From NCBI GenBank assembly GCA_037431425.1, contig GCA_037431425.1_4129.2: a stretch of 64,000 nt of DNA; one strand, written 5' to 3'. Under the pieces are notes generated by a model. The model did not search any database and was not told the origin of the DNA. It saw only the letters and a list, made by a program, of their open reading frames with translations. Within the stretch, counting starts at the first letter, position 1. Every line of letters begins with the position of its first letter. The DNA is from a phage. Position numbers and translations under genes: made by a program. Positions 3,253 to 35,732 of the stretch are shown piece by piece.

Positions 3253-6200
3253 TTAAGCGGTACGTTGAGCAATAAACATATCTGCTACTGAACTTACACC
3301 ATCGTAAATTACCTGATAGATAGTTACAGAGTTTGCAGTTTTATTTAGAGTCCCATCAACAACAGCATATGTACCATCAGTAGTAAAGTTTCTATTACCA
3401 GTTGCATCTTGTTTAACATAAATGTATACTGATGATGCTTTTCCACCACCGATTAGACCAGTGATTGGTGCTAGAGTAGTATCTTGATCAAGAGTGATGA
3501 AGTATACGTTGCTAGTACCGTCAGGGGTCCAAGTACCATTCGGTGCAATAACAGAGGAAGTTACTTTACTTGGAATAACATCATACTTTTTGGTAGTTAC
3601 GGTTGTAGTGGCGAGTTCTGCGTTGGTTGTAGTTAACTTACCAGTAACAGTTACTTCTTTATCAAACACCGCATTTTCTTTGAAAGTTGGTGTTGAATTA
3701 ACAGTTAGTGTGTCAGTATTAGTATTACCTAAAACCACACTACCACTTGCTGTCATCAAACCAGAAACAGTTAGTGTACCACCAATAGTTGCATTACCAG
3801 TTACTGATGCACTAGCAAGTGTAGCTGCACCAGATGTAGTTATTGTTGTAACAGATGCTGCCTCTAGTGTGGTTGCACCAGTTGCGGTAAGTTTACCATC
3901 AACTACTAGATCACCAGTTACGGATGCACCACCGGACATTGTTACTGCCCCACCGAATGAACCAGTTGTAATTACTTCAAGTGTGTTACCTTTTAGTAAT
4001 TCAGTTGCTGTGATACTTGTACCAGCGGTAATGCTTGTACCCGCAGAAACAGTATTAGTTGCAGTTAAGGACTTCACAGCTACATCAGAGTTAGCTTGGT
4101 TAAGTTTAGCATTTAGAGTACCTGTTACTGTGAAGTCACCGTTGTTAACAACATTACCATTGATAGTTAGGTTGTTATTTTGTGAACCGACATCACCAAT
4201 TGTTGCTGATTTAGAAATTAACTCAGCACCAGCGGTAATGTTGCCAGCAGCACTGATATTGTTTGCTGCAACAACTGCATAAGGTTCAATTGTTTGACCA
4301 CTAACATCAATATCTGCGTTAATACCACCATCAACACGCAAAGAACCAGCAATATATGTATTAGGGAAAATCTGAACAGTTTCAGTGTGTTCACCGACCT
4401 GTGTACCAACAATAACATTAGATCCAGTTTTCACTGCACCAGAAGTTGTTAGAGAACCTACTGTTGCTTTGCCAGTAACACCTAGTGTACCGCCAACAGT
4501 TGCATTATTAGTTACTGCCAATGCTGTTCCTTCACCATTCAGTGTAATTGATGGAGCAGTTGCTTTACCAGTTACATCTAGTGTACCACCAACAGTTGCA
4601 TTACCATCTGAATGTATTGTTGTTGCAACAGAAAGACTGTTTGCAATTACATCCGCACCAGTCAAATCCAATGCACCTGGTGTTAATGTACCAGTAATGT
4701 TAACATTATTACCAAAGGTTGCTGCACCAGTTACATCTAGTGTAGTGCTAAATGTACCAGAAGTTGCAGAGATTGCACCAGATTCAAGTGAACCAACAGT
4801 GGTTTTTCCAGTTACACCCAGTGTACCACCAACTGTTCCATTTGTTGTAACTTCTAGTGTTCCAGTACTTAGATCTTTTGCTGTCACTTTACCAGATGCG
4901 TTAACAGTTGTTGTTGTAACACCACCACTTAGGGTGCTTGTCCCAGTAACACTGAGTGTTTTTGCTGCACTAACGCTGTTTACAGTAAGATCAGCACCTG
5001 ATAGGTCTAAACCACCTTCAGGAATAAAATTACCCTTAACTGTTAGTTGTTGAACAGTACTGTCACCAGTTACATCTAGTGTAGAAGCAGTCAAACCACC
5101 ATTCATACTTGCTGCACCAGTTACATCTAGTGTAGTTGTTACAGTTGCACTGTTTAGTGTGGAGCTACCGGAAATATTAGCACTAGGTGCAGTAATAGAT
5201 CCTTTTACAACTTGTACATCACCCGCAACAACATCAATACCACCAGCATTAACTGTTAGTTTTTCAGCAGTATTCAACGTACTTGAAATTGTTGTTGCAC
5301 CAGTTAAGGTTGTAGTTCCAGCTACACTTATGTTTCCAGAGATAGATGGATTACCTGTAATGTCACCAGTAGTGAGAACCAATTCAGTACCTACAGTAGT
5401 AGAACCAGTACTTTCTAGTGTTACACCAACGATGTTTGCAGAACTTAGGTTAATAGTACCATCAACAGTTAAGTTACCGTGAACTGTCGCATCACCAAGT
5501 GAATTTAATGTTTTCACTGAAACATCAGTTTTACTAAGGTCAATTACACCCGCAGTAAGTGTTCCAGATACTGCCAAATTACCAGTTATTGCTGTATTTT
5601 TAGTAATAGATACTGTTTCTGATGCTGACGTAATGGAGCCAGCAGTAAGTGCCCCACCAATGGTTGCATTGTTAGTTACGGTTAACGCTGTTTCTTCACC
5701 AGATAGTGTTAAAGAAATACCATTCATTTCACCAGTAATATTTGCCGATGCCGCAGAAATATCACCAGCAACTACCGCATTTGTTGCGTTTAGGGTTGTT
5801 GTGGTAATTTCAGTACTTTTCACTTTAGGTAGTGCGTTGATACCATCTTTACTATTAACTGTAATAATACCAGTACTTGTTAGAGATTTAACAGATACAT
5901 CAGCACCACTTAAATCAACTGTACCAGAAACAACTAGATCGCCACCAATATTAGCTCCTTCTGTTGTAGTGATTGATTTTGCATTAACTTCAGTGTTACT
6001 CAAATCAATTGCACCAGGTGATACAGTTCCAGAAACTGTGAGATTACCAGTAACTGTAGTATCATTAGAAATAGATACACCATCATCATTGCTAATTGTT
6101 GGGGTTTCAATTGTAACAGCTTTAACTTTACCAGAAGAAGTCATGTCAGCAACAGTAGATGCACCAGTAACATTCAAATTAGTAATATTTGCAGTTGTTG

Positions 6201-8796
6201 AACCAAGGGTTGCAATAGTTGCATCAGTACTTTCTAGTTTAGGAAGAACACTAGCAATAGAAGATTCGTTACTAACAATTGCACCAGTACTAGTTAAAGA
6301 TTTGACAGTAACATCAGCCGTAGTAAGATCTACTGTACCATTAACAGTTAGGTTACCACCAATAGTTGCACCAGCAGTAGTAGTAATGGATTTAGCATTA
6401 ACATCAGTTGTTGCTAGATCGATAGAACCTGGAATAACTGCACCAGTAACGGTTAGGTCACCAGTTACATTTGTATTATTGGAAATAGTGACACCACTTG
6501 CATTTGAAATGGTTGGGGTAACCAACGATGCAGTTGTAGTTTCACCAGTTACAGTTAAAGTTGACCCAACTAGAACAGATGAGCTTGAGTAAATTGTACC
6601 CAAATTAGCAGATCCGGTAACAGTTATATCATCAGCATTAACAGTAGTTGCCGTTATGGTAGTACTATTAAGTACTGGAAGTACGTTAGCATTAACAAGA
6701 TCATTACTTTTAACAATACCAGAAGTAGTTAATGATTTAACATTAAGGTTGGCTGCTGATAAATCAAAAGAGCCTTGAACTACTAAATCACCACCTATAG
6801 TTGCACCAGCAGTAGTAGTGATTGATTTAGCATTAATATCGGTAGTGCTCAAGTCTAGAGAACCAACAGTTAAGCTACCAGTAATATCAACATTTTCTGT
6901 AAAGTTAGTATTACCACTAATAGTTGGTGCAGTCAGAGTTGTTGCACTAATATTAGTACCGTTAATTGTTTGCCCACTTACAGTTCCACTCGCAGTGATA
7001 GTAGGAGCCGTTACTTCAGTAGATGCACTAATTGTTGGTGCAGATACAGAAGTTGTACCAGTAATAGTACCAGAACTTACTGAACCAGCGGATAATGCAC
7101 CAGAAAGAGTTGCAGTTGTACCAGCAATATCACCAGTAACAGTTAGTTTAGCACCCACGGTAGTGTTACCAGTACTTTCAAGTGTTGCACCTTTAATATT
7201 TGCTGCCGCGACAACAGAATTAGGTGTTAGATCTTGACCACTAACATCAACAGTTAGTCCAGTTACTGTTCCAGTAAATTCAACATCATTAAGAATTGCC
7301 TTACCACCAACTGTAAGGTATGGTGTACTTGGGTCTTGAGTATCGTTACCAGTGATAGTTAGATAATCTAGTTTGTTTAGGCCGTTACCAGTAATACCAT
7401 AAGAAGATAGTGATGCATTACCAAAGGTAGCAGTTTTAAGTACTTTCAATGTTGCTGGGGAAACCAACTCAGATTGAACTTCATTAGGTAAAATAACAGT
7501 TGGACGTTGATCTTGTGCGGTATATGCAAAACCTAGTTTCACAGCAGAATCTTGTGAATTTTGACCTAAACTAATAGCTTTAAAAGAAGCAGTACCGTTT
7601 AAACCAGTAATATTAGATCCTAGTGTAACACCACCAACTAAAGAAGACGCACCCTTTATATTTAAAGTGTTTGCATCAATATCATCAAGTTGGAAATCAC
7701 CACCAAATGTACCGGAAACATTAATATTATTAAAATTAGCAGTACCAGTACTTTCAATATCTGGAATGGTTGCTGTTCCAGTAACCTCAAAATCAGCAAC
7801 TTTAGTTTTACCTTTTGTCACTTCTAGAAGTGGGGTGTCAGGTGATTGTGTATCGTTACCAGAAACGGTTAGATAATCTAGTTTGTTTAGACCATTACCA
7901 GTAATACCATAAGAAGACAATGATGCATTACCAAAAGTAGCAGAAGTTAAAACTGTCAATTTAGCAGGTGACATTAATTCAGATTGAATTTCATTTTGTA
8001 GAATTACTGTTGGACGTTTATCAGGAGCACTGTAAGGGAAGCTCAATCTGGAGGTTTGTGATTCAGAGTCGGTTCCGATACGGATATCTTTAAATGTAGC
8101 AGTGCTATTAATACCAGTTACGTTAGCACCAAAAGTTACCGCACCTTTTTGATTAGATGCACCAGTAACATTCAATGTTTCAGCGTTTAAATCAGAAAGA
8201 TTAAACTCGCCACCTAGTGTACCACTAATATTCACATCTTGAAACTCAGCAGTGCCAGTACTACTGATGTCTTTAATTTTTGCAGAATTGGCAGTAATTT
8301 TATCAAATGCGGCAGTAGTTCCAGAATACGCAACTAAGTCACCTTTCATGCTCAAGTTACCTTTTGTACTTAAGTCCCCTTCCACGTTTAATGTACCGTT
8401 CATTGTTGCTGTCTCAGCAACTTCCAATTGTTTAACTTTAGTTGCTTGAAGTGTTGTTTTACCCTCAGATTGAGTGAGATCTGCACCCACCGTAACAGTA
8501 CCGTTAAATGTGGCGTTTGCATTAATTGTTGCTGTATCAGAATCACCATCTTCACTACCGATTGTAGTATTACCTTTAATATCAAGACCACCACTTAGTG
8601 TTGCTTTTCCAGCAACATCTAATGTGGATGTAATATTGGCAGTTTCGGTTTCAATGGCAGTAAAAGTTGCATTTGTGAAAGATATACTACCATTTACAGT
8701 TAGGTTATTCTTGAATACAGCATTCCCTTTGACTAAAAGATCCTTACCAACCGTACCGGAGCCAGTAATATCTAAGTCAGTTTTTATTGAGTACAT
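3253..8796 (-). CDS. Very large fibrous protein (1847 aa), probable long tail fibre/adhesin
   Basis: 5.5-kb ORF; Thr/Ser/Gly/Asn/Val-rich low-complexity sequence; two families of long in-frame repeats; RBS GGAGGG 5 nt upstream of ATG at 8796. Confidence 0.65.
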   Translation of the reverse strand: MYSIKTDLDITGSGTVGKDLLVKGNAVFKNNLTVNGSISFTNATFTAIETETANITSTLDVAGKATLSGGLDIKGNTTIGSEDGDSDTATINANATFNGTVTVGADLTQSEGKTTLQATKVKQLEVAETATMNGTLNVEGDLSTKGNLSMKGDLVAYSGTTAAFDKITANSAKIKDISSTGTAEFQDVNISGTLGGEFNLSDLNAETLNVTGASNQKGAVTFGANVTGINSTATFKDIRIGTDSESQTSRLSFPYSAPDKRPTVILQNEIQSELMSPAKLTVLTSATFGNASLSSYGITGNGLNKLDYLTVSGNDTQSPDTPLLEVTKGKTKVADFEVTGTATIPDIESTGTANFNNINVSGTFGGDFQLDDIDANTLNIKGASSLVGGVTLGSNITGLNGTASFKAISLGQNSQDSAVKLGFAYTAQDQRPTVILPNEVQSELVSPATLKVLKTATFGNASLSSYGITGNGLNKLDYLTITGNDTQDPSTPYLTVGGKAILNDVEFTGTVTGLTVDVSGQDLTPNSVVAAANIKGATLESTGNTTVGAKLTVTGDIAGTTATLSGALSAGSVSSGTITGTTSVSAPTISASTEVTAPTITASGTVSGQTINGTNISATTLTAPTISGNTNFTENVDITGSLTVGSLDLSTTDINAKSITTTAGATIGGDLVVQGSFDLSAANLNVKSLTTSGIVKSNDLVNANVLPVLNSTTITATTVNADDITVTGSANLGTIYSSSSVLVGSTLTVTGETTTASLVTPTISNASGVTISNNTNVTGDLTVTGAVIPGSIDLATTDVNAKSITTTAGATIGGNLTVNGTVDLTTADVTVKSLTSTGAIVSNESSIASVLPKLESTDATIATLGSTTANITNLNVTGASTVADMTSSGKVKAVTIETPTISNDDGVSISNDTTVTGNLTVSGTVSPGAIDLSNTEVNAKSITTTEGANIGGDLVVSGTVDLSGADVSVKSLTSTGIITVNSKDGINALPKVKSTEITTTTLNATNAVVAGDISAASANITGEMNGISLTLSGEETALTVTNNATIGGALTAGSITSASETVSITKNTAITGNLAVSGTLTAGVIDLSKTDVSVKTLNSLGDATVHGNLTVDGTINLSSANIVGVTLESTGSTTVGTELVLTTGDITGNPSISGNISVAGTTTLTGATTISSTLNTAEKLTVNAGGIDVVAGDVQVVKGSITAPSANISGSSTLNSATVTTTLDVTGAASMNGGLTASTLDVTGDSTVQQLTVKGNFIPEGGLDLSGADLTVNSVSAAKTLSVTGTSTLSGGVTTTTVNASGKVTAKDLSTGTLEVTTNGTVGGTLGVTGKTTVGSLESGAISATSGTFSTTLDVTGAATFGNNVNITGTLTPGALDLTGADVIANSLSVATTIHSDGNATVGGTLDVTGKATAPSITLNGEGTALAVTNNATVGGTLGVTGKATVGSLTTSGAVKTGSNVIVGTQVGEHTETVQIFPNTYIAGSLRVDGGINADIDVSGQTIEPYAVVAANNISAAGNITAGAELISKSATIGDVGSQNNNLTINGNVVNNGDFTVTGTLNAKLNQANSDVAVKSLTATNTVSAGTSITAGTSITATELLKGNTLEVITTGSFGGAVTMSGGASVTGDLVVDGKLTATGATTLEAASVTTITTSGAATLASASVTGNATIGGTLTVSGLMTASGSVVLGNTNTDTLTVNSTPTFKENAVFDKEVTVTGKLTTTNAELATTTVTTKKYDVIPSKVTSSVIAPNGTWTPDGTSNVYFITLDQDTTLAPITGLIGGGKASSVYIYVKQDATGNRNFTTDGTYAVVDGTLNKTANSVTIYQVIYDGVSSVADMFIAQRTA
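5570..6910 (-). repeat. ~420-bp in-frame tandem repeat, 3 full copies plus a partial, inside the 1847-aa fibre gene
   Basis: Protein repeats beginning G-ID/LDLS-T-VNAKSITTT-GA-IGG-L-V-G-VDL; DNA motif GATTGATTTAGCATTAA recurs near 5980, 6400 and 6830; boundaries approximate. Confidence 0.5.
7250..8280 (-). repeat. ~510-bp direct duplication (2 copies, ~170 aa each) inside the 1847-aa fibre gene
   Basis: DNA motif GTTAGATAATCTAGTTTGTTTAG at ~7358 and ~7868; protein segments ...RPTVIL-NE-QSEL-SPA-L-VL-(S/T)ATFGNASLSSYGITGNGLNKLDYLT... nearly identical. Confidence 0.55.
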
Positions 8797-8868
8797 TTAT
8801 ACCCTCCATTATAACCTTGTTAATATGTATATATTTAGTTTTATTCTCCTGTTAACTAATAATTTATC

Positions 8869-8903
8869 AAAATAAAAAACCAGACTTATCTTAATAAGTC
8901 TGG
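8869..8903 (-). terminator. Intrinsic terminator (bidirectional) between the 300-aa and 1847-aa fibre genes
   Basis: 10-bp stem CCAGACTTAT (8880-8889) / ATAAGTCTGG (8894-8903), 4-nt loop, A-run upstream and T-run downstream. Confidence 0.6.
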
Positions 8904-8912
8904 TTTCATTTT

Positions 8913-9815
8913 TTACTTACCAGAGATAACAATCTTCCCACTGAATGTAACATCAGAAGTAAAGGTTACGTCACCTGTGTTGCTAATTTGTGTATCCGTT
9001 ACAACTAATTCAAATGGAGATAACGAAACACTGCCAGGTGTTTTATTTGCATAAATCGAAACATACAAATTTTCTGGTGATTGTTTGTGTTCAGATGCTG
9101 GAATCGTGATGATGAATTTATCCTCATCTTTATTAGAAATCCAATCAGCTTGGTTTACCAATTTACTATAAGGTGCTGTCATTGATGTTGCTCCTATAAT
9201 GTTTACTATAACATTTTTATAATCCGTAATTTCCCCAATTACATCTATTGTAATATCACCCGTACCGCTTACTACCACAGAGGTTTGAAATATTGTATCC
9301 AATGTTACACCACCAGGATCGCCATGTAGTTGTATCATGATATCTGCACCACGGCCATGAACAGATGCTGGTAATGTGTATGTATAATGATCAGTAGTGT
9401 CTGGTACTAATGTAAATTCAGAAACGGGTACAGTTTCTGATGTTACATATGAACTATCAGTTTGTTGTGCATTTCCTTTAAATGATTTCCAAATACCAAG
9501 ATCTTTAATATAAATTTGAAGAACATTAGTTTCATCAACTAAAAAATACACATTGCCATCTAACCCAATAGATTCATCCGGGGCACTGGTCCCACTCAAA
9601 ATACCAGAACTTCCAGAGCCACTATGTGCGTTTAGATATCCTAACGTAACCAGATGTGTGTTAGAGGTCGGTTCACCTGCTGAAATTGGAAGAAGTTTTG
9701 TTCCTGAGTAGTTTTGTATTTGCACGACACTACCATTTGTGGTAATCTGTGCACCATTCTTCCCAAGAATGAAGGATTTCTTCATTGTTCCTTCTAAATT
9801 AGAAAAAACTGCCAT
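8913..9815 (-). CDS. Receptor-binding-protein-like protein (300 aa) sharing an N-terminal module with the adjacent tailspike
   Basis: N-terminus MAVFSNLEGTMKKSFILGKNGAQI... parallels MAVFSNFEGTMKPKMILGKNGASI... of the 714-aa protein; RBS GGAG upstream. Confidence 0.55.
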   Translation of the reverse strand: MAVFSNLEGTMKKSFILGKNGAQITTNGSVVQIQNYSGTKLLPISAGEPTSNTHLVTLGYLNAHSGSGSSGILSGTSAPDESIGLDGNVYFLVDETNVLQIYIKDLGIWKSFKGNAQQTDSSYVTSETVPVSEFTLVPDTTDHYTYTLPASVHGRGADIMIQLHGDPGGVTLDTIFQTSVVVSGTGDITIDVIGEITDYKNVIVNIIGATSMTAPYSKLVNQADWISNKDEDKFIITIPASEHKQSPENLYVSIYANKTPGSVSLSPFELVVTDTQISNTGDVTFTSDVTFSGKIVISGK

Positions 9816-9831
9816 TTTAATTTAATCTCCT

Positions 9832-11973
9832 TTATGGTAGGGTTATGTACGTTACTGGCTGTGCGGCTTTTAATAATGCACCAGAGGCAGTTGCTGTTAT
9901 GATGGGATCTGCAATATCAATTCTATATACATTATTAACAACATATACTGCACGAGTTATATACGTTTTCAAATCATCACCATTTTCACCAGCACCAGAT
10001 ATAATGATCTCAGTTCCAGCCGCTTTTGCATATTGATTATCGCCCCATGACACACCCAATGCTTCTATATACGTTTGTCCTACCATCGTTTGTCTGATTG
10101 TGTCATATTTTCCAAAAAATGATCCACCCACTGTTACAATATATTTTCCACCCGATTTTTTATGTATAATCGTTCCTTCTGGGAAGTATCTTCCACCAGG
10201 GAAAGTATCATATGGAATATAATATTGTTCAACTACAGGTATTAGTACTGGGCCACGATGACCAGTACCGTCAATAGCAGTTGTTACTTTAAAATTATTA
10301 GATGATTGGTCGATTCTATCTACATACATTTTAGAAAAACTATATTTTGAAACATTACAATCATCTTGAACAACACAGTTAGTCCAATTAGTATAAGTAT
10401 ATTTAGAGCGAGTATACATTCCCCCACCCTCACCTTCAGTGGAAAGGTGTTGTCCTATTACATCTAATTCTTTTGTTCTGATATCACTAAACTTAGATGA
10501 AGATGGTAGACCACGCCAAAGAATTTTAGAACAAGTGATATTACTTAATTCTGTACTATTCAGCCAATTATCAGAACCAGAAGTATAAACGAATACGGAA
10601 GACTCTGGTATATAGAGATTGGAAATTTTAAAGTTTCTAGGTGGTCCAGCAAATCGACCAGCAGTTACCCCCCAGTTAATAGATACCATACGGTTTGTGA
10701 TTGTAGGATCATTAAGTAAATGTCCGGTTAAACCATCAATTACAAACTCTTTTGAGCCATAAGTTATCACACCAGCAGTTGTTAATCCTGTACCAACAGA
10801 AATTAAAGATGATGGGTACACCTCATTGTCAAGTATTTTGAAATCCATCCCCAATTCGACATGGATGCATTGTCTAACATTATAAAGTCTATTATTCTTA
10901 ATAACAAAGTTTCTAACATATTGAGTATCAGGGGCATCCAAATCATAAGGACCAGAACCAGCTACACCGATACCAATACCCCAGTTTGAAAGCGGGATTG
11001 GTGCATCAGAGCCATCAACATTTTCAATTATATTACCTTCGATCACAAAACCATCAGGATAATGTGAGTTAATAACGTTCAATTCAATTGCATCCCCGTA
11101 GATATCATGAATGTGGTTATATGAATAACGACCGACTTTCATTTTCTCACCAGTACCCTGTTGGAGAACGCCATATTTGCATTTAGTCATTTCATTAAAG
11201 CAAAAATCAATTGTACCTGGTTGAGTCATACCTTGCATCAAAAACGCAGCAGTACTGGTAATGTTTATAAATTTATTAAAATAAAATTTACCATCCCCAC
11301 CAAAGAATTTCAGATAACATCCAGTAAGTGTGGTGAATTGAATTTGTGAATTAATAACGGATATCATAGTACCACCATTACCAGTAATAGTGCCACCAAA
11401 CCAAGTTACATCTTCCAAATATACTGCTTTTTTGATACGATAATTACCACCTGCTTGAATTTGTATTTTATTTTCTTTGGCATAAGTTGCACACAAATTT
11501 ACAGCTTCAGTGTCATCGGTTTCCCCATCTCCTTTCGCACCAAATTCTTCTGGTGTTATATAGAACTGTGCTTGTTGAACTGTGCCACCAGTAATAAGGC
11601 CAATGAAATCACCACCATTTTTACTTGATAGTACTTTTTTATTAATGTATAGTGATTTAATCCATGTGCCATTTGTTTTTACGAAAATATCAACAATACC
11701 ATCTTCATCAATTTGAAAATAAGTGTTATTGTTTTTTCCAATATCACCAGACGGTGGTTGAACGCCAAATAAGGCATTTGGATTATCTTCAAGGTATCTA
11801 ACATTAACTGCTGAATCTTGGTCTGATGGTGTTCCTATCTTTAGTGGTAGGAACTTTTCACCGAGATAATCTTTTATCGATACGGAATCATTGACGAAAT
11901 TTATCGAAGCACCATTTTTACCCAATATCATTTTTGGTTTCATGGTTCCTTCAAAATTAGAAAATACTGCCAT
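9832..11973 (-). CDS. Tailspike/depolymerase-like protein (714 aa), pectate-lyase-superfamily beta-helix
   Basis: Motif ITPEEFGAKGDGETDDTEAVN typical of pectate-lyase-3 tailspikes; start moved from track 12168 to ATG at 11973 (RBS AAGGGGGA, homology to neighbour begins there). Confidence 0.6.
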   Translation of the reverse strand: MAVFSNFEGTMKPKMILGKNGASINFVNDSVSIKDYLGEKFLPLKIGTPSDQDSAVNVRYLEDNPNALFGVQPPSGDIGKNNNTYFQIDEDGIVDIFVKTNGTWIKSLYINKKVLSSKNGGDFIGLITGGTVQQAQFYITPEEFGAKGDGETDDTEAVNLCATYAKENKIQIQAGGNYRIKKAVYLEDVTWFGGTITGNGGTMISVINSQIQFTTLTGCYLKFFGGDGKFYFNKFINITSTAAFLMQGMTQPGTIDFCFNEMTKCKYGVLQQGTGEKMKVGRYSYNHIHDIYGDAIELNVINSHYPDGFVIEGNIIENVDGSDAPIPLSNWGIGIGVAGSGPYDLDAPDTQYVRNFVIKNNRLYNVRQCIHVELGMDFKILDNEVYPSSLISVGTGLTTAGVITYGSKEFVIDGLTGHLLNDPTITNRMVSINWGVTAGRFAGPPRNFKISNLYIPESSVFVYTSGSDNWLNSTELSNITCSKILWRGLPSSSKFSDIRTKELDVIGQHLSTEGEGGGMYTRSKYTYTNWTNCVVQDDCNVSKYSFSKMYVDRIDQSSNNFKVTTAIDGTGHRGPVLIPVVEQYYIPYDTFPGGRYFPEGTIIHKKSGGKYIVTVGGSFFGKYDTIRQTMVGQTYIEALGVSWGDNQYAKAAGTEIIISGAGENGDDLKTYITRAVYVVNNVYRIDIADPIITATASGALLKAAQPVTYITLP

Positions 11974-11986
11974 TATGACATCCCCC

Positions 11987-13114
11987 TTAAATATTGTCTT
12001 GGATAGGTTGGGCCGGAGCTTGCCATGAAAGAGTACAAATAATTTCCATTTTACCATAAGGACTGTTATTAACTGAATCATTAAAAACACATGAAATGAT
12101 TTCATCAACATCAGATACTTCATGATTTGTTTCATTAACAATAAAACGCATCTGGCGATTAATATCAAAGTAGGTTATTGGTGCAATGACTGTACCACCA
12201 ATATTTTCGTTGGCTTCACCACCAAATCGAACAAACATATCAGTTACTGGTTGTGAATAAGGTTGTAAAACATTTACATCTATATTAGAAACTACATATC
12301 CAGCAGGACAAGTCCCAATAACTAATAGAGCATTAGTCCATGATCTATCAATAACGTTTCTAATTGTTACAGTATCTTTGCCTGGTGTACCCGGTTCACC
12401 TTGCTTACCTTGAATACCTTGTGGACCTTCTTTGCCACGGAATAAAATACCACTACTCCATTCTTTTGATGGTGGGGTGGTAGTTGTTACTTCATCCACA
12501 TAATAAAGCTTGCCATCAGTGTTGTTATAGAAACAATAATCAATTGGGAGGTTTTCAATACTTGGAAATTGATCACCACTATCGTCAATATGAAAACGAC
12601 CACGTGGACCTTGCTCACCACGGAAAGGGACACCATCACTCCATGTAGCTGTTACTTTTTGATAAAAATATAGTTTACCATCTTGTGTATTGTAAAATGT
12701 ATAGTTATCAAAAAGACCAGAACTTGGAAAAGTAGTTCCTGCACTATCGATATGAAAAGGCTTACCAGCTTCACCAGTATCACCTTTACCAAATTCAACA
12801 CTAGTCCAAGTACTGGTTTCTTCTTGTGCATCATTTGATTTAAAATACAGAGTACTTGTGTTATTTGCCAAACTAAGATAGCACCAGCCAAGCGGTTCAC
12901 CAACTTTAAATTTATCAGATGGAACTTCAAAACCAATCTCATTAGGATAAAAGTTTTTACCGTTCTGACCATTTTGTCCCACAACAAGACCGAGATCTTG
13001 AATTGTATTATCTGTATATGTTACAATTAAATGACCAGCATTATTAATAACTAGACTTTTGATGCCTGAGTTATTACATGAACCACTGGACCCATTGTTA
13101 AATGTAATTGTCAT
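11987..13114 (-). CDS. Collagen-like tail fibre protein (375 aa)
   Basis: Gly-X-Y runs (GEQGPRGRF; GKEGPQGIQGKQGEPGTPGKD); internal duplication FYNTQDGKLYFYQKV / FYNNTDGKLYYVDEV; RBS AAGGGA. Confidence 0.55.
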   Translation of the reverse strand: MTITFNNGSSGSCNNSGIKSLVINNAGHLIVTYTDNTIQDLGLVVGQNGQNGKNFYPNEIGFEVPSDKFKVGEPLGWCYLSLANNTSTLYFKSNDAQEETSTWTSVEFGKGDTGEAGKPFHIDSAGTTFPSSGLFDNYTFYNTQDGKLYFYQKVTATWSDGVPFRGEQGPRGRFHIDDSGDQFPSIENLPIDYCFYNNTDGKLYYVDEVTTTTPPSKEWSSGILFRGKEGPQGIQGKQGEPGTPGKDTVTIRNVIDRSWTNALLVIGTCPAGYVVSNIDVNVLQPYSQPVTDMFVRFGGEANENIGGTVIAPITYFDINRQMRFIVNETNHEVSDVDEIISCVFNDSVNNSPYGKMEIICTLSWQAPAQPIQDNI

Positions 13115-13150
13115 AATATTTCCCTTTTATGAGTGAATGTCATATACCAA

Positions 13151-13158
13151 TATTTATC
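13151..13158 (-). promoter_or_regulatory. Late-promoter-like box (GATAAATA) for the minus-strand fibre operon
   Basis: Reverse complement of 13151-13158 is GATAAATA, 37 nt upstream of ATG at 13114. Confidence 0.4.
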
Positions 13159-13184
13159 AGTACGAAATACATTTCGTCACCATT

Positions 13185-13192
13185 AATAAATA
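13185..13192 (+). promoter_or_regulatory. Late-promoter-like box (AATAAATA) for the plus-strand three-gene operon
   Basis: AATAAATA 32 nt upstream of ATG at 13224; divergent from the box at 13151-13158. Confidence 0.4.
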
Positions 13193-13223
13193 AATGAAAG
13201 TTCACTACTAAAAGGGCTTAACA

Positions 13224-13721
13224 ATGGCATTAAGATCAAAAAACTTTCTTTTTAAAAGAAAAACAAAAGATGGTTCATGGCAAGATTTTCCTGAATCTGA
13301 CAGTTGGTATCCAGCCCAATTGGATTATCAATGGAATGAACAAACATTACCACTACCAAGCGGTGGATATTATGGCAGCACTACAGGTTTGCATACCATT
13401 TCATTTACACTACGTAATTTCATTGGAAGAATTTATGTATTAGCAACATTAGCCAGCAATCCAACAGATGATGATTGGTTCCCAATTAAATTCACTGAAA
13501 GTTGTAAATATTATCTAGAATTTACGGATATGGTTATTTTAAATCCAAACGGTGGTGATTTGATTAGACAACAAGGAACTACCGGAACATTTGCAGAGAC
13601 ATTAACAGGTAACTTTACATATCTTAAAGTTGGTATTGACCGAGATTATATCAGTAAGTACCCGTCAGATGTACAAAAAAGTTTAGCAGGTAAACTAGAA
13701 CAAATTTTAATTAACTACTAA
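13224..13721 (+). CDS. Hypothetical protein (165 aa), probably late/virion-associated
   Basis: ORF with RBS AAAGGG; late box upstream; no recognisable motif. Confidence 0.5.
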   Translation: MALRSKNFLFKRKTKDGSWQDFPESDSWYPAQLDYQWNEQTLPLPSGGYYGSTTGLHTISFTLRNFIGRIYVLATLASNPTDDDWFPIKFTESCKYYLEFTDMVILNPNGGDLIRQQGTTGTFAETLTGNFTYLKVGIDRDYISKYPSDVQKSLAGKLEQILINY

Positions 13722-13730
13722 GGATTAGAA

Positions 13731-14339
13731 ATGAAATTAGAAGCAGAACAACCAAAACTATTTGTTAAAGGTCATGTCCTAATTACTGACGTTACTGATC
13801 CATCAAATCAAAAAATCGTTTTAGATAAATCTAACGCTATTCACCCAGAAAATATGAGTACTGCAATTGCTAATGCGTTAGCATACAATCAAGATAGTAC
13901 CAGTATTCCTATTGGTTCAATTAGCGAAATGCGTTTTGGTAATGGTGGTACTGTAGTGTTAAGTACTGGACGAGTCACGTACAAAAAACCACGTGTGACT
14001 TCCTTTGGTGGATTGTATTCACAAACATATTTAAAAAAAATCAACCCAAGAATTACTGCTGGTATTGATTCACAGTATAATAACATCACAACAGTTCATA
14101 TCCCAGGACAATCATATACTGATATTGTATGTATTTGTACGCTTGGTTTGGGTGAACCATCAGACCAAGGTGTAAGTTCAGGCACAAGTATGGATGGCAC
14201 ATATGTATTTGATGAATTAGGGTTATATACTGATGGTGATAGTGGTATTCCATTGACACATATCATTTTTCACCCAGTTGAGAAAAGTGCTAACCGTGTG
14301 TTACAAATTAAATACACAGTTCGTGTACAACTACAATAA
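13731..14339 (+). CDS. Hypothetical protein (202 aa), probably virion structural
   Basis: ORF with RBS AAGGA; tightly coupled to flanking genes. Confidence 0.5.
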   Translation: MKLEAEQPKLFVKGHVLITDVTDPSNQKIVLDKSNAIHPENMSTAIANALAYNQDSTSIPIGSISEMRFGNGGTVVLSTGRVTYKKPRVTSFGGLYSQTYLKKINPRITAGIDSQYNNITTVHIPGQSYTDIVCICTLGLGEPSDQGVSSGTSMDGTYVFDELGLYTDGDSGIPLTHIIFHPVEKSANRVLQIKYTVRVQLQ

Positions 14340-14351
14340 TGGGGTCAAATT

Positions 14352-15452
14352 ATGAGTGTAAGTTATACAATTTATAGAAGCAATGGTAGTGTTTATGCTA
14401 CCATTCCAAATAATGTCATATTGGGGCCAAACCAACCAGGAAGTAACCCAGTTCCGTTGAATTTTGTCGGAAGAAATAAAGTAAGTTATGGACAAGCATG
14501 GAATGAAAACTTTTTACATTTAGTTGAGAATTTCAGTTCAGCTTCAGCACCACGCGGTAATGTGAACGGTCAACTGTGGTACAGAAATGCTGGCAGTACT
14601 GGTGAATTATTGATATCATTGGTTGACAATGCTAGACAACCATCAGATGTTGTGAGTGAAGCTGAGTGGGCGTCTATTCCAATGATTTCTGTGTTTAATA
14701 CCGTACCAGATGGTGAAAATAGTGTTATGGGTCGTATGGTATTAACCAGTAATGGTGACTCACTTCGTGTATTAATGAAAAATAAAGAATGGCGTGAAAT
14801 TCAAACATCACGTCCTGAGAATAAAGAATATACATCATTATTGGATATTAACTATGATAATGGTAAAAAATATATTGAGTTTACACAAAATAATAGTACT
14901 AAACCACTAGCATATTTTAACTTAGGAGGAACGTCACAAGTCGATACTAACAACTGGACAACCGTAACTAACGGAACTGGTGTTTTTGAATTTGGTAGTA
15001 ACTATTTCTATGAATTAAAAATTATGATTAGAGAGGTAAGCGATTCAACAGGTGAAATTGTATCAGTTCCACATAATTCAAAAACATTTTTAATCAAAGG
15101 TCAATTTTATGTAGATAACCAAGGTACGTTTGTCCCTGGTTCTGTGGGTGCAAGTCAAATGCCAGACCCCCGCAGGATTACACATCTAGAAACCATTAAA
15201 GATGTTATTACCAGTAGTCGCCCGAACTGGGATGTGAACATGGTTATCAATGATGTAGATCCATCACTACCTAATCCAAACGGCACATCTAAAGCAGATT
15301 ATGAAAACTGGGTTATTAACTCATTGAACTCTAATAAAAACTTAGGATTTAGAGTTGATGGTAGTATTAGCAATCTTGCACCAGGTGAATCTGTGAAATT
15401 ACAAGCATCAGTGTTGTTAAACATTACAGGTATTCCAATTATTGGTGTATAA
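14352..15452 (+). CDS. Hypothetical protein (366 aa), possible baseplate or fibre-attachment protein
   Basis: ORF in late operon; Asn/Ser/Thr/Gly-rich; guess from context only. Confidence 0.5.
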   Translation: MSVSYTIYRSNGSVYATIPNNVILGPNQPGSNPVPLNFVGRNKVSYGQAWNENFLHLVENFSSASAPRGNVNGQLWYRNAGSTGELLISLVDNARQPSDVVSEAEWASIPMISVFNTVPDGENSVMGRMVLTSNGDSLRVLMKNKEWREIQTSRPENKEYTSLLDINYDNGKKYIEFTQNNSTKPLAYFNLGGTSQVDTNNWTTVTNGTGVFEFGSNYFYELKIMIREVSDSTGEIVSVPHNSKTFLIKGQFYVDNQGTFVPGSVGASQMPDPRRITHLETIKDVITSSRPNWDVNMVINDVDPSLPNPNGTSKADYENWVINSLNSNKNLGFRVDGSISNLAPGESVKLQASVLLNITGIPIIGV

Positions 15453-15480
15453 AAAAAAGGAGCCATGTGGCTCCTTTTTT
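15451..15480. terminator. Bidirectional intrinsic terminator between convergent operons
   Basis: A8 - GGAGCCATGTGGCTCC palindrome - T6, between stops at 15452 (+) and 15479 (-). Confidence 0.65.
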
Positions 15481-15943
15481 AATATCTATATGGTAAACTA
15501 TTGACAAACTGTGTACCTTCACGTATACTTTCCCATAATGAGTAAAAATCTTTCATCAAGTTTGTGTTAAGCAATGTGTTTTTTGCACCAGGGTGTAATG
15601 GTTTAGGCCACGAGCCGATTTTAACCCATGCATATCCAGAGCTTTCATGATTTAATGTTGGTATAAACTCATTCTCAACTACGATAACAAATGAATAATA
15701 TTTAAATTTACCATTTTTTGTACAAAATACATCAAATGGTATAATATCAATAATATTTGGTATTGAGTCACCTAACTCTTCTTTAATTTCTCTCATAAGA
15801 CCTTGTAATGGTGTTTCGTCGCGTTCAAGCTTTCCACCAACAAATGCCCAATTGTTCGAATAGGTACTTCTTTCAGAACGTAAATTTAACATCATATGTC
15901 CGGTACTTTTTGATAAAAATATAGCACCAACAGCTTCATTCAT
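15479..15943 (-). CDS. Nudix hydrolase (154 aa)
   Basis: Nudix box GGKLERDETPLQGLMREIKEELG (G-x5-E-x7-REuxEExGu); RBS AAGGAGG 8 nt upstream. Confidence 0.7.
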   Translation of the reverse strand: MNEAVGAIFLSKSTGHMMLNLRSERSTYSNNWAFVGGKLERDETPLQGLMREIKEELGDSIPNIIDIIPFDVFCTKNGKFKYYSFVIVVENEFIPTLNHESSGYAWVKIGSWPKPLHPGAKNTLLNTNLMKDFYSLWESIREGTQFVNSLPYRY

Positions 15944-15955
15944 AACAACACCTCC

Positions 15956-17299
15956 TTATTTGTCAGTGAAAGTTATTTTCCAATATCCTTGACGATAAAC
16001 TGGCATAATACTTTTATGCCATTTAAATTTACCATTGTATCTATAATAACCATTATCTTCGTTGTTATAAATGTAATTACGCACAGTTGATGGGTCAATT
16101 AATTCAGCACCGTCGTTGGTAATTTTAAACAAATAATTCGAAGGAATTTCAGTTTCTTTGTAAATGATGTTATGTATACTGTTATTTACATAATATTGTT
16201 CAGGTATTGCGTCAAAAAGAACTGAGCTTTTTTGGACAAATCCATGAATAGTATAATCAACTGTATAGTTGCTACTATCAAGCTGAACGATAATTTTATT
16301 TGCATCTTCATCTTCACCATATGAAGAAATATAGCCTTTGAGTGGGTTATCTTCTTCGATTGATTGTTGAAATTTAATACCAACTTTTTTATCATCAAAA
16401 TTGGGTTCCAAATATTTAAGATATTTTTCCCATGAGTAGATACCACCATTAGGGGAAACATCGGACAATGACTGACTAACTAAAGTTAATTGATATGTAT
16501 CTGGCAAATTATATAAAGAATTAGTTATCTCTTCAACTTTAATACATAAGTTTTTTGGTGTAAAGACATCGGTGATGATATCAGAATAGTCAGACATTTC
16601 AATGTCAAATTCATCACGTGCACCTTTAATATTAGTAGTGATTTGTTGAATCAATTTTGGTTTTTCAACAATAGCTGGTAAAGAAAACCATATTGTTGTT
16701 TCAAATGTCAATACCATAATGTCTAAATCTTGGTCAGTTCCTTGTGGAAACCCACGAGTAGAGAACTGACAATCAATCAACTCTACATCACTTAGTGATG
16801 TCCAATCCAACGGGTTTTCAGATAACTGAAGTTGAATACTCGGTGAAAATAAAGTTGAAATTTGCTCAAATAATTCCATCTTTGTTTGTATTTGAGTTAC
16901 CCAGATATTCAAATCAAATGTAAATGTCCAAGGAACTGGGTTATGTCTTACGATTTTATATTGTGAATCGAGTTCTTTTTTGTATTCATTAATGGCAGGT
17001 GATGTGTTTGTACCCATAACTAATGTTTCATTCGCATTAGAACGTATACTTTTACGATCCAGCTTTAGTTGATTAACACTGATTGTCATAATTGGTGCAG
17101 ATGGAAGAACATTTTCACTATTACCATTGATAATTGCAGCAGCCATTCTTGATATATCCGCATAACGACATGGAACCTTTTTATATTTTGGGTTCCCATC
17201 AGCATCAACACCATTTTGTACTTGAAATTCACCAAAAACTCTGATAAGATGTTTCAGTACTCTGCGAAATTGGCCGTCATAATAATAATCTATTTTCAT
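15956..17299 (-). CDS. T4 gp15-like tail completion / sheath stabiliser protein (447 aa)
   Basis: N-terminus IDYYYDGQFRRVLKHLIRVFGEF...KYKKVPCRYADI...VLPSAPIMTISVNQL parallels T4 gp15 FGYFYNSSFRRYATLMGDLFSN...KFIRVPITYAS...ILPRINLHLVDF (from memory); 4-nt overlap with upstream gene. Confidence 0.5.
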   Translation of the reverse strand: MKIDYYYDGQFRRVLKHLIRVFGEFQVQNGVDADGNPKYKKVPCRYADISRMAAAIINGNSENVLPSAPIMTISVNQLKLDRKSIRSNANETLVMGTNTSPAINEYKKELDSQYKIVRHNPVPWTFTFDLNIWVTQIQTKMELFEQISTLFSPSIQLQLSENPLDWTSLSDVELIDCQFSTRGFPQGTDQDLDIMVLTFETTIWFSLPAIVEKPKLIQQITTNIKGARDEFDIEMSDYSDIITDVFTPKNLCIKVEEITNSLYNLPDTYQLTLVSQSLSDVSPNGGIYSWEKYLKYLEPNFDDKKVGIKFQQSIEEDNPLKGYISSYGEDEDANKIIVQLDSSNYTVDYTIHGFVQKSSVLFDAIPEQYYVNNSIHNIIYKETEIPSNYLFKITNDGAELIDPSTVRNYIYNNEDNGYYRYNGKFKWHKSIMPVYRQGYWKITFTDK

Positions 17300-18789
17300 T
17301 CTGTGTCCTTATGTATACGATAAGCTGTATTTGGTTTAACTGCGTCATGTAATGGAACTTTATTATCACTATTTACGAACTTAGTAAGTGCTAAATCTGC
17401 ACCTTCCCACGGTTTTCTACCACCGTAATCAAAAATAACCCATGAATTCTTAGTTGCATTGAATTCCCACAGTGTAACTGGTGTATAATCAGTACGGTAA
17501 AAGTAATCACCATCAACTGCATCAGTAGGGAACATGTTTCCTTCTGGAACTGTACCTCTTGCTGGTGGGATTTTAGGGCGATAATCCTGTTGTGCATCAA
17601 TATTTCCATATACACAACTTGATGTGAATGGGTCATTGACGTAAGTTACTTTTGGTTCGCCCCATTTACCATCATTGTACTGAAAAATGTGTGGTTCTTT
17701 ATAAAAAATACAAAAATCTTCAATATCTTTTGGTGGATTTTCACTGGTCGTGTATTCAACATCACAATTTAACCATTTTTTAACACTTTTATCGTACTGG
17801 TATAGTGTATACCCAGTTACATCTACATCATTCTCTTTAAAGAAGAAATCACCATCCATAGGTTTCTTAGGAAAAACGGTTCCACGCTTGACTTCCAGTG
17901 AAATCCATGTATCATTATCGTATTCTTTAAGTATTGGGTATGTTTTTTTCAAAAAATACATACCACTTGCAGGTTCTTCGGGGAAATCATATCCATTAAG
18001 CATATACTTTGACAAATCAACAGTATCACGACGGTCATCATACAAATGCTCGTTGGTATAATGAATATAAGGCACTTCATCATCAGCTTGCATAATGATA
18101 CGATTCATAATATCCATTTCATTACTATAGTTACTGTTATCAGATGTACCATCATCAGTGTTACCATTACCATTATTTGGATCATTTGGGTTATCAGGGT
18201 AATTGTTGTTTCCTAGTAAGTCGGAGTACTCAGGAGAGTCAGTCAATGGCTTTACTCGAAGTTTATAAATGTGATGTTGCCAAGTAACAGAGTAACCTTC
18301 TGCTGTACGAAACGCATCTTGGACCACATAGAAGCGATTCAGACCAGAATCTTTACCAAGAACATCATAATCACGTAAATTTGGTAGTTCAATTACATCA
18401 CCAGGCATGATTTTTCTACCCAATCGTTGCATCATGGTATTGTAGTGGATTGTAATGTCCATCGTATTGAAATTAAAGAACAAACCTGGAATTTTCAAGT
18501 CAGGTGTTGCTTCTTGAACTTGATAGACACAACTTAGTGTGATTGCTTCAAGATTATAGTTTCTATTTGGGGTGTCTCCAAAAATTAAATCACCAATACT
18601 TGACACAACCGATCCAGAAGATGTATAATCACCGCCATATGATAAGTCTTTGTTATCTGCAACTTGTTTTGGGCCGACATAAGCGTAAAGCCACATGTCA
18701 ACACCACCAATGTTGTATTGTTCAGCAATGGCAGAGTCAATGAACTTGTAATCATTGGTTCTACCTTTTTTCCACATTCTATATGTCAT
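17296..18789 (-). CDS. Hypothetical protein (497 aa), possibly a neck protein by position
   Basis: Start moved from track TTG at 18801 to ATG at 18789 (RBS GGAG 6 nt upstream); sits upstream of the gp15-like gene as gp13/14 do in T4. Confidence 0.5.
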   Translation of the reverse strand: MTYRMWKKGRTNDYKFIDSAIAEQYNIGGVDMWLYAYVGPKQVADNKDLSYGGDYTSSGSVVSSIGDLIFGDTPNRNYNLEAITLSCVYQVQEATPDLKIPGLFFNFNTMDITIHYNTMMQRLGRKIMPGDVIELPNLRDYDVLGKDSGLNRFYVVQDAFRTAEGYSVTWQHHIYKLRVKPLTDSPEYSDLLGNNNYPDNPNDPNNGNGNTDDGTSDNSNYSNEMDIMNRIIMQADDEVPYIHYTNEHLYDDRRDTVDLSKYMLNGYDFPEEPASGMYFLKKTYPILKEYDNDTWISLEVKRGTVFPKKPMDGDFFFKENDVDVTGYTLYQYDKSVKKWLNCDVEYTTSENPPKDIEDFCIFYKEPHIFQYNDGKWGEPKVTYVNDPFTSSCVYGNIDAQQDYRPKIPPARGTVPEGNMFPTDAVDGDYFYRTDYTPVTLWEFNATKNSWVIFDYGGRKPWEGADLALTKFVNSDNKVPLHDAVKPNTAYRIHKDTE

Positions 18790-18831
18790 ATTTGTCTCCA
18801 AAATAATTCGGGTATATCTTTATTTACCATG

Positions 18832-18859
18832 TAGACAAACCATAAGAATGTGATATAAT
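18832..18859 (+). promoter_or_regulatory. Sigma70-like (early-type) promoter for the ClpA-like gene
   Basis: TAGACA (18832-18837) - 16 nt - TGaTATAAT (18851-18859), ~40 nt upstream of ATG at 18898. Confidence 0.5.
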
Positions 18860-18897
18860 GTTTGTTAATTAGAGTGACGTGAATCACAGGAGAATAC

Positions 18898-35243: not shown

Positions 35244-35732
35244 TTATACGGATTCGACGATTCGTGCCATCTTTTCCGCTCTAGAAGTGGTTTGTTTATA
35301 CCAGGTACTATCACGCAATTCTTTACCAGCAGTTTTATAATCAGCATTACCCAATGCGGTCATTGCTTTTTTAAATTTCAAAACTTTGGCTTTGCCCATT
35401 TGGAACACCATCATCCACAAAACACGCTGTACTTGTACTGGTGCAGTCATGCCAAATTGCTCATAAATTGATTTTGCGTCATTGTACGCGGCCTGAGCAT
35501 CTTTAATAAGAAGTTGTTCAGCTTGTTCTTCAGTTAAGCCATTTTTGAAGTTTTCACCAGGAAGAACTAAATGACCATAACCAATAGTATCAAGTCCCAA
35601 GCTATCTTTATATACCCAAAACTTATCATTTTTAAAATAACCAAGTTTTTTCTGATAAGCAATAGTTCCTTCAAATTCTTTGATTTCATTAAAAAATTGC
35701 TCATCTGTATTTTTAATTTCCCATTTACTCAT
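35244..35732 (-). CDS. T4-lysozyme-type (GH24) lysozyme, stand-alone (162 aa)
   Basis: Catalytic-region motifs EFEGTIAY ... YKDSLGLDTIGYGHLV match T4 lysozyme E11/D20/T26 context; ~55% identical by eye to the C-terminal domain of the adjacent spike gene. Confidence 0.8.
   Translation of the reverse strand: MSKWEIKNTDEQFFNEIKEFEGTIAYQKKLGYFKNDKFWVYKDSLGLDTIGYGHLVLPGENFKNGLTEEQAEQLLIKDAQAAYNDAKSIYEQFGMTAPVQVQRVLWMMVFQMGKAKVLKFKKAMTALGNADYKTAGKELRDSTWYKQTTSRAEKMARIVESV

Follow-up and report, generated by a model that had tools for sequence, protein, structure and literature searches.

A conserved N-terminal anchor joined to an exchangeable body is the design common to TSP1-4 of phage CBA120, gp526-534 of RaK2, the spikes of phiKp24 and the KP32-type spikes of Klebsiella phages, and systems of the CBA120, RaK2 and phiKp24 type carry several anchored spike proteins per virion. 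One spike body of known structure is that of gp150 from phi92, a 148-kb rV5-like myophage (804 residues; PDB entries 6E0V and 6E0W); a 2026 phi92 paper (PMC13450770) states, citing Xu et al. 2025, that gp150 hydrolyzes the β-1,4 glucose-fucose bond of colanic acid. The present analysis concerns a homologous tailspike gene in a 64,000-nucleotide stretch of phage DNA (contig GCA_037431425.1_4129.2 of GenBank assembly GCA_037431425.1; hereafter, the window), and in particular the locus at positions 8913-13114. The 713-residue spike encoded there is homologous to phi92 gp150 from the neck to the C terminus (residues 101-712, ~57% identity). However, the first ~187-190 residues of gp150 are unmatched, and a Rak2-like module of ~108 residues, which is shared with an adjacent 300-residue protein, stands in their place; moreover, the host genome is of the 350-kb jumbo type. 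On sequence grounds, the 713-residue protein therefore appears to be a chimera of a gp150-type body and a diverged paralogue of its neighbor's module. The same three genes occur in the same order in phage 121Q (gp572, gp573 and gp574) and as orthologues in PBECO4, ph0011, UE-S1 and SHEFM2K, under annotations such as "colanic acid degradation", "virion structural protein" and "tail protein". With 86-95% identity at the nucleotide level and ~94% for the spike protein, no substantial difference separates these loci from the window.

The locus is filled by three tightly spaced minus-strand genes with intergenic gaps of 13 and 16 nucleotides:

11987-13114, minus strand: first gene of the unit, collagen-like "tail protein" of 375 residues (PHROG 13565, E = 6e-217)
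9832-11973, minus strand: colanidase tailspike gene, 713 residues (ATG at 11973, stop codon 9832-9834)
8913-9815, minus strand: conserved virion structural protein of 300 residues (module and two putative β-sandwich domains; PHROG 10468)
8876-8907, minus strand: terminator-like hairpin directly 3' of the 300-residue gene, 14-bp stem followed by a T-run (consensus scan)

Given the strong hairpin after the last gene (a pattern match only), the arrangement suggests that the three genes form one transcription unit. The start of the spike gene was assigned to the ATG at 11973, which is preceded by the ribosome-binding site AAGGGGGA and yields the same length as 121Q gp573 (713 residues). A TTG-started open reading frame (ORF) of 778 residues was rejected as the spike gene because it overlaps the upstream gene. 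Of the sizes proposed in a first-pass annotation made from the DNA letters, that of 300 residues holds, and that of 714 is corrected to 713. Residues 227-245 of the 375-residue protein form a brief run of Gly-X-Y triplets, and its orthologues CBB_228 and ENKO_257c have been detected in virions by mass spectrometry. No BLASTP similarity was found between the 300- and 375-residue proteins, a comparison prompted by a 375-residue BFVD match.

Comparison of the 300- and 713-residue proteins by BLASTP gave 85.5 bits, E = 9e-23 and 37% identity over 147 columns. True homology is confined to residues 1 to ~109, where identity is 41%, and no significant similarity was detected by BLASTP beyond residue ~109. 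The first-pass annotation had proposed both an N terminus shared by two adjacent proteins and complete divergence thereafter, and the alignment bears it out on each point. Searches with blastp, tblastn and hmmsearch revealed the module in no third ORF or frame of the window, which thus holds two copies only:

11779-11973, minus strand: domain A of the module in the 713-residue protein (residues 1-65), proposed N-terminal attachment domain
11650-11778, minus strand: domain B of the module in the 713-residue protein (residues ~66-108), one repeat copy
9477-9815, minus strand: module in the 300-residue protein (residues 1-113; A, 1-65; B, 66-113), from BLASTP and hidden Markov model (HMM) matches

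The two-part nature of the module was revealed by an exhaustive HMM search of 1.84 billion representative proteins, which returned 143 matches. Such a search was required, as an earlier profile search of a word-indexed protein database had recovered 6 proteins only. Domain A conforms to the consensus MA-[IV]-[FY]-S-N-x-x-G-T-[MF] ... [IL]-G-K-x-G ... P. Domain B is a single copy of a ~40-residue repeat, G..G..Y....D....(I/L)(Y/F).K..G.W, and profile positions 63-108 match 3-12 tandem copies of this repeat in collagen-like fiber proteins and a Gram-positive surface protein. Fold matches in BFVD to collagen-like and tail-collar proteins agree with this assignment, and strands are present at the equivalent positions in the AlphaFold2 model of the 300-residue paralogue. 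No Pfam family covers domain A or domain B, and a PDB sequence search with the module returned no solved structure, its sole match being a short "tail fiber gp9" motif at E = 0.32.

Five colanidase-type modules were compared with 60 modules of the 300-residue family. The two classes have 29 conserved positions in common, and 14 of these fall among the first 21 residues, the best-conserved stretch of the module in each class; a further 13 positions are conserved differently between the two. Such a pattern would be consistent with one shared mode of attachment and a possible specialization of the socket. The first ten residues are of low confidence in the monomer model of the 300-residue protein, as would be expected of a peptide that binds a partner. 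Recent gene conversion was suspected from the near identity of the first 36 coding nucleotides of both genes and was rejected: phage K64-1 has the same codons together with synonymous differences, and the near identity is accounted for by amino acid constraint and AT-rich codon use.

The spike body was delimited by homology to 6E0V as follows:

9835-11649, minus strand: colanidase body (residues ~109-713), with neck, right-handed β-helix and C-terminal domains

Residues 101-712 aligned to residues 16-623 of the 6E0V chain in HMMER (E = 1.5e-235), identity to phi92 gene 150 was 56.6% from query residue 96 on by tblastn, and PHROG 6117, "colanic acid degradation", matched residues 94-712 (E = 2.9e-258). 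Pfam PF12708 gave a weak match to residues 144-252 (E = 7e-4; 19.8 bits, under the 27-bit gathering cutoff). The pectate-lyase motif pointed out in the first-pass annotation, FGAKGDGETDDTEAV, is present at residues ~147-161, inside both the weak PF12708 match and the full-length match to the phi92 colanidase; the body is a close homologue of a solved colanidase of reported activity and not a mere non-enzymatic β-helix. A β-helix fold is implied by homology to the phi92 structure, and the protein is predicted to degrade colanic acid. Orthologues in 121Q and PBECO4 are 86-94% identical.

Several records depart from the intact gene. In Escherichia phage vB_EcoM_JNE01, the orthologue (4838-6986 of locus L013) carries a single-nucleotide insertion, aacgga[c]ggagat, at the module/body junction, producing a 141-residue module protein and an open body frame of ~590 residues. 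Given that the 141-residue product is found on 28 contigs from several sources, this frameshift is probably a genuine circulating variant rather than a sequencing error. An internal deletion is seen in a 201-residue protein (P0004, "TPA hypothetical protein [Escherichia coli]", filed under an E. coli assembly), in which the module, neck and start of the β-helix, through GAKGDGET, are fused directly to the last ~50 residues. Phage GAP32 (JN882285.1; 3683-5704 of locus L014) encodes a distant colanidase-like protein, GAP32_128 (26% identity), that lacks the module and lies among genes for PhoH, GroES and tyrosyl-tRNA synthetase, far from the fiber cassette. In the phAPEC6 record (MK817115.1), locus tags pass from gp253 to gp256 with no coding sequence for the colanidase or the 300-residue protein; the DNA at these unannotated genes (7001-10200 of locus L016) is 86.5% identical to the window.

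Domain A is not restricted to the two proteins of the window. Within its positions 1 to ~67, it was found by HMM at the extreme N terminus of ~18 other protein clusters with unrelated bodies (E down to 3.7e-14). These carriers include a 780-residue spike of the pectate-lyase type that has an endosialidase-type chaperone domain, a 705-residue β-helix spike, a 741-residue protein with a Peptidase_G2 domain and fibers of 1200-1366 residues, at least one of which (P0025) has BNR repeats. Fifteen N termini, that of the 713-residue protein and 14 others, align nearly gap-free over 66 columns. The 780- and 705-residue spikes are encoded on one uncultured 120-kb phage contig (L015; SRR18476386_53, 119.9 kb, 10001-20688) within a five-gene fiber cassette, which repeats the window's pattern of two module-headed proteins. 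Given that domain A heads two different spikes on this contig, the homology is most economically read as that of a shared N-terminal module for attachment. The 902- and 919-residue proteins of L015 share another N terminus (MSKKI.G.L.V...), and there seem to be two separate anchor families in the cassette. A tblastn search of isolated phages with P0025 returned no carrier of its N terminus; no related locus was found for P0025 in IMG/VR, and the search for the related fiber protein P0022 gave partial matches only.

The 300-residue protein is matched along its whole length, residues 1-300, by PHROG 10468 (E = 6.4e-87). Eighty homologues were collected at 36-97% identity, and all except one 203-residue partial sequence are 284-309 residues long. 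The module is the better conserved part of this family (e.g. 63% versus 45% for the C-terminal part), and the module of the window's protein is 59-66% identical to those of GAP32, CBB and RaK2. The C-terminal part is itself 37-54% identical across phages of Escherichia, Cronobacter, Erwinia, Yersinia and Salmonella, and Xanthomonas phages also carry the gene. An AlphaFold2 model based on a 60-sequence alignment reached a mean predicted local distance difference test (pLDDT) score of 82.6; the single-sequence model, at 33, was unusable. The part distal to the module was delimited as follows:

8916-9458, minus strand: C-terminal region of the 300-residue protein (residues ~120-300), two putative β-sandwich domains, proposed fiber-binding part

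In the model, this region is nearly all β-strand, mostly at pLDDT >85, and is read as two β-sandwich domains, in agreement with the short β-rich domain that had been proposed for it. Orthologues are found in virions by mass spectrometry (CBB_227, 5 peptides; ENKO_256c, liquid chromatography-tandem mass spectrometry). The 300-residue protein is thus best read as a core component of the virion throughout the Rak2-like jumbo phages and not as a variable receptor binder. The suggestion that the two proteins are an interchangeable receptor-binding pair is not supported, since the C-terminal part of the 300-residue protein is conserved across at least five host genera and the colanidase alone is lineage-specific.

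The distribution of the module was examined across the Rak2-like group. It is present once in each phage searched, from hosts that include Cronobacter, Erwinia, Pectobacterium, Yersinia, Serratia, Xanthomonas, Klebsiella and Salmonella. Two copies were found only in the colanidase-bearing E. coli phages of the group and in four Salmonella SD- records; the colanidase is thus confined to a lineage, whereas the 300-residue protein is group-wide. In GAP32, CBB, Munch, fENko-Kae01 and XaC1, the gene order is collagen-like protein, module protein of ~290 residues and long tail fiber of ~1560 residues. The collagen-like gene immediately precedes that of the module protein in GAP32, CBB, RaK2, K64-1, Munch and fENko-Kae01, a small opposite-strand gene intervenes in XaC1, and the colanidase gene sits exactly between the collagen-like and 300-residue genes in the 121Q-type phages and the window. 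The ~290-residue module protein is always followed, in the phages compared, by a long-fiber orthologue of ~1560-1850 residues, after which a DUF4376 protein and a ~640-residue protein come next in GAP32, CBB, Munch and fENko-Kae01. The fiber of the window is as follows:

3253-8796, minus strand: long-tail-fiber-like protein of 1847 residues (PHROG 4549, tail fiber, E = 1.8e-218; counterpart of 121Q gp571)

Its 121Q counterpart is annotated "long tail fiber proximal subunit". Residues 666-759 of the 1847-residue protein match Pfam Bactofilin (E = 2.7e-10), which probably reflects repetitive β-helix rungs rather than a cytoskeletal role.

Three size classes of module protein were distinguished. 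In RaK2, K64-1 and the metagenomic relative L017, the protein consists of the bare module (113-115 residues; RaK2 ORF061 and K64-1 gp067 are both of 115 residues), and the long-fiber and DUF4376 genes are missing. In a distant metagenomic lineage (L020), it has 193 residues, corresponding to the module and the first sandwich, and small proteins take the place of the large fiber gene. Every other lineage examined has a module protein of 285-300 residues, directly followed by the fiber gene. Given that the C-terminal sandwiches accompany the long fiber while the module persists without it, the 300-residue protein is a probable adaptor or connector for the long tail fiber, with the module as its virion-embedded part; synteny and co-variation point to the 1847-residue fiber as the likely partner. 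On the uncultured Rak2-like contigs L020 and L021, the collagen-like protein is only 159 residues long, and the small proteins in place of the long fiber comprise two with Pfam PF26209 (Phage_phiTE_241_C), followed by a 689-residue protein. The possibility that the module ORF of RaK2 and K64-1 is a frameshifted N terminus of the receptor-binding protein gp098 was ruled out: RaK2 ORF061 is a closed 115-residue ORF followed by a 164-nucleotide gap and a separate 510-residue gene, and gp098 is located elsewhere.

From the homologies, domain boundaries, synteny and distribution described above, we infer, with a probability of roughly 60%, that the module is a trimerizing plug by which its carrier is fixed to the tail or baseplate and that the colanidase body came to be mounted on the virion by duplication of this module. 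In such a mechanism, the module would trimerize and plug the carrier into the tail or baseplate, with its extreme N terminus as the contact element and a site probably next to or on the co-conserved collagen-like 375-residue protein, which is a candidate socket. The 300-residue protein would be the ancestral carrier, its C-terminal β-sandwiches most likely binding the long tail fiber encoded downstream. In an ancestor of the E. coli lineage (and of the Salmonella SD- phages), a horizontally acquired colanidase body would have been inserted between the collagen-like and 300-residue genes, behind a copy of the module. Carried on the virion, the enzyme would strip colanic acid before the fibers reach their receptors at the cell surface. 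A broader possibility, held tentatively, is that domain A and the β-hairpin repeat constitute a hitherto undescribed and structurally uncharacterized universal plug, with which Rak2-like and unrelated uncultured phages alike would mount various fibers and spikes on a common socket, perhaps the collagen-like protein; RaK2 ORF061 would then be a bare plug, and any body placed after residue ~108 might be displayed on the virion.

A number of observations weigh against the mechanism favored here. The colanidase-type module is about equally far (33-43%) from every module of the 300-residue family and barely closer to that of its own neighbor (43.5%) than to distant members. Given this near equidistance, the duplication is old or the copy has evolved fast, or else the module came from another lineage; the two copies may also no longer fit one socket. 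In the JNE01 lineage, the insertion parts the module from a body whose reading frame is still open, which could mean that anchoring is dispensable. The co-variation of the C-terminal domains with the long fiber rests on two loss events only. Domain A is covered by no solved structure or Pfam family, and whole-model fold searches, which cannot isolate the module, gave nothing convincing. The 713-residue protein is absent from the phAPEC6 virion proteome list, an absence rendered uninformative because both the colanidase and the 300-residue genes are unannotated in that record.

Three other accounts of the shared N terminus can be set against the plug. The two proteins might be alternative receptor binders that compete for or share one baseplate site, giving virions with a mixture of both. 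The positions common to the two classes, concentrated as they are in the first 21 residues of a homologous module, would suit such competition, as would the apparent transcription unit and the ~60% identity (by eye) of domain A in the two L015 spikes. We nevertheless regard this as unlikely, given that phages of numerous host genera keep the 300-residue protein at full length and that variation in its size follows the fiber gene; in addition, modules that are only ~41% identical and differ at 13 class-specific positions fit specialization after duplication. An assembly in which the two chains co-trimerize through their N termini into a hybrid fiber is more improbable by far. Homologous N termini, neighboring genes that appear to be transcribed together and a repeat of the kind seen in trimeric collagen-like fibers are compatible with it, but β-helix spikes of the colanidase type are, so far as is generally known, homotrimers. 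Furthermore, 41% identity is low for co-assembly, all other Rak2-like phages have the 300-residue protein without a colanidase partner, and the phi92-type body was crystallized alone (PDB 6E0V).

The remaining account dispenses with attachment: the colanidase would be a soluble enzyme, intracellular or released at lysis, and its module a leftover of the insertion event. Proteomic detection of the spike is not on record, the distant GAP32 protein is encoded among non-structural genes, and the JNE01-type frameshift, whose 141-residue product recurs on 28 contigs, falls exactly at the module/body junction and leaves the body frame open. Against these points, the module is intact and constrained in every one of the ~30 intact orthologues, even though the two groups of these differ by 22% at the nucleotide level. 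The gene also lies inside a block of virion genes, and the proteins most closely related to its product (phi92 gp150 and others named "tailspike colanidase") belong to the tail and have N-terminal anchors of their own. A soluble enzyme is consequently considered improbable, and the anchored spike is retained as the preferred interpretation.

The surroundings of the locus are those of a tail and baseplate region. Megablast gave identities of 95% with Escherichia phage ph0011, 94% with UE-S1 and 86% with 121Q, PBECO4 and phAPEC6, all of them Asteriusvirus myophages of ~350 kb within the Rak2-like group, and so places the window among Asteriusvirus-like jumbo phages. An N4-like origin, suspected from the presence of a 3327-residue ORF, was dropped in view of this result. 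Adjoining the locus are genes for a T4 gp15-like tail protein, the 3327-residue virion protein, a wedge protein of the baseplate and a lysozyme-containing hub. The 3327-residue ORF (21221-31204, minus strand) lies between a ClpA-like gene and the baseplate wedge gene and is matched over its full length by PHROG 10938, "virion structural protein"; its phAPEC6 counterpart (382 kDa) has been detected in virions. A 162-residue ORF (35244-35732, minus strand) adjoins the gene for the 887-residue baseplate hub/tail lysozyme (35769-38432, minus strand) and is a stand-alone copy of the hub's C-terminal lysozyme domain (residues 728-886; 52% identity, E = 3e-58), the second instance in the window of a domain duplicated beside its parent gene.

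If the proposed mechanism holds, the locus illustrates a possible route by which a 350-kb coliphage could gain a capsule- and biofilm-degrading enzyme, namely, placement of a ready-made colanidase body behind a copy of a resident module. Residue ~108 would be a natural fusion point and could serve to display other depolymerases on Asteriusvirus particles; were the universal plug also to prove correct, a simple rule for retargeting jumbo phages would follow. The analysis further identifies an N-terminal domain outside any Pfam family or solved structure, and in its light the 300-residue "virion structural protein" becomes a probable fiber connector, and RaK2 ORF061 a putative attachment module that stands alone.

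The comparison with known systems can be drawn as follows. Annotation roughly bears out the estimate that 13 kb encode at least five fibers or spikes; for the branched adhesin apparatus suggested on that account, RaK2 and phiKp24 offer no more than an analogy. T4 gp9 is a trimeric baseplate protein of 288 residues that holds the long tail fiber. The 300-residue protein resembles it, by analogy, in size, in its multi-domain β structure and in the position of its gene beside a long-tail-fiber gene (partly from PMC10253068); no sequence or structural similarity between the two was detected. Orthologous genes are already annotated in 121Q and PBECO4, the family of the enzyme body has been solved and characterized, and an anchor with an exchangeable body is textbook knowledge; the design of the locus is an ordinary modular one that leaves the understanding of tail-fiber modularity unchanged. 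In the papers and database records searched, the N-terminal module common to gp572 and gp573 goes unmentioned. What appears to be new is that proteins of the gp572 and gp573 type have this module in common, that it is core to the Rak2-like group and stands alone in RaK2, and that its domain A heads other spikes in uncultured phages.

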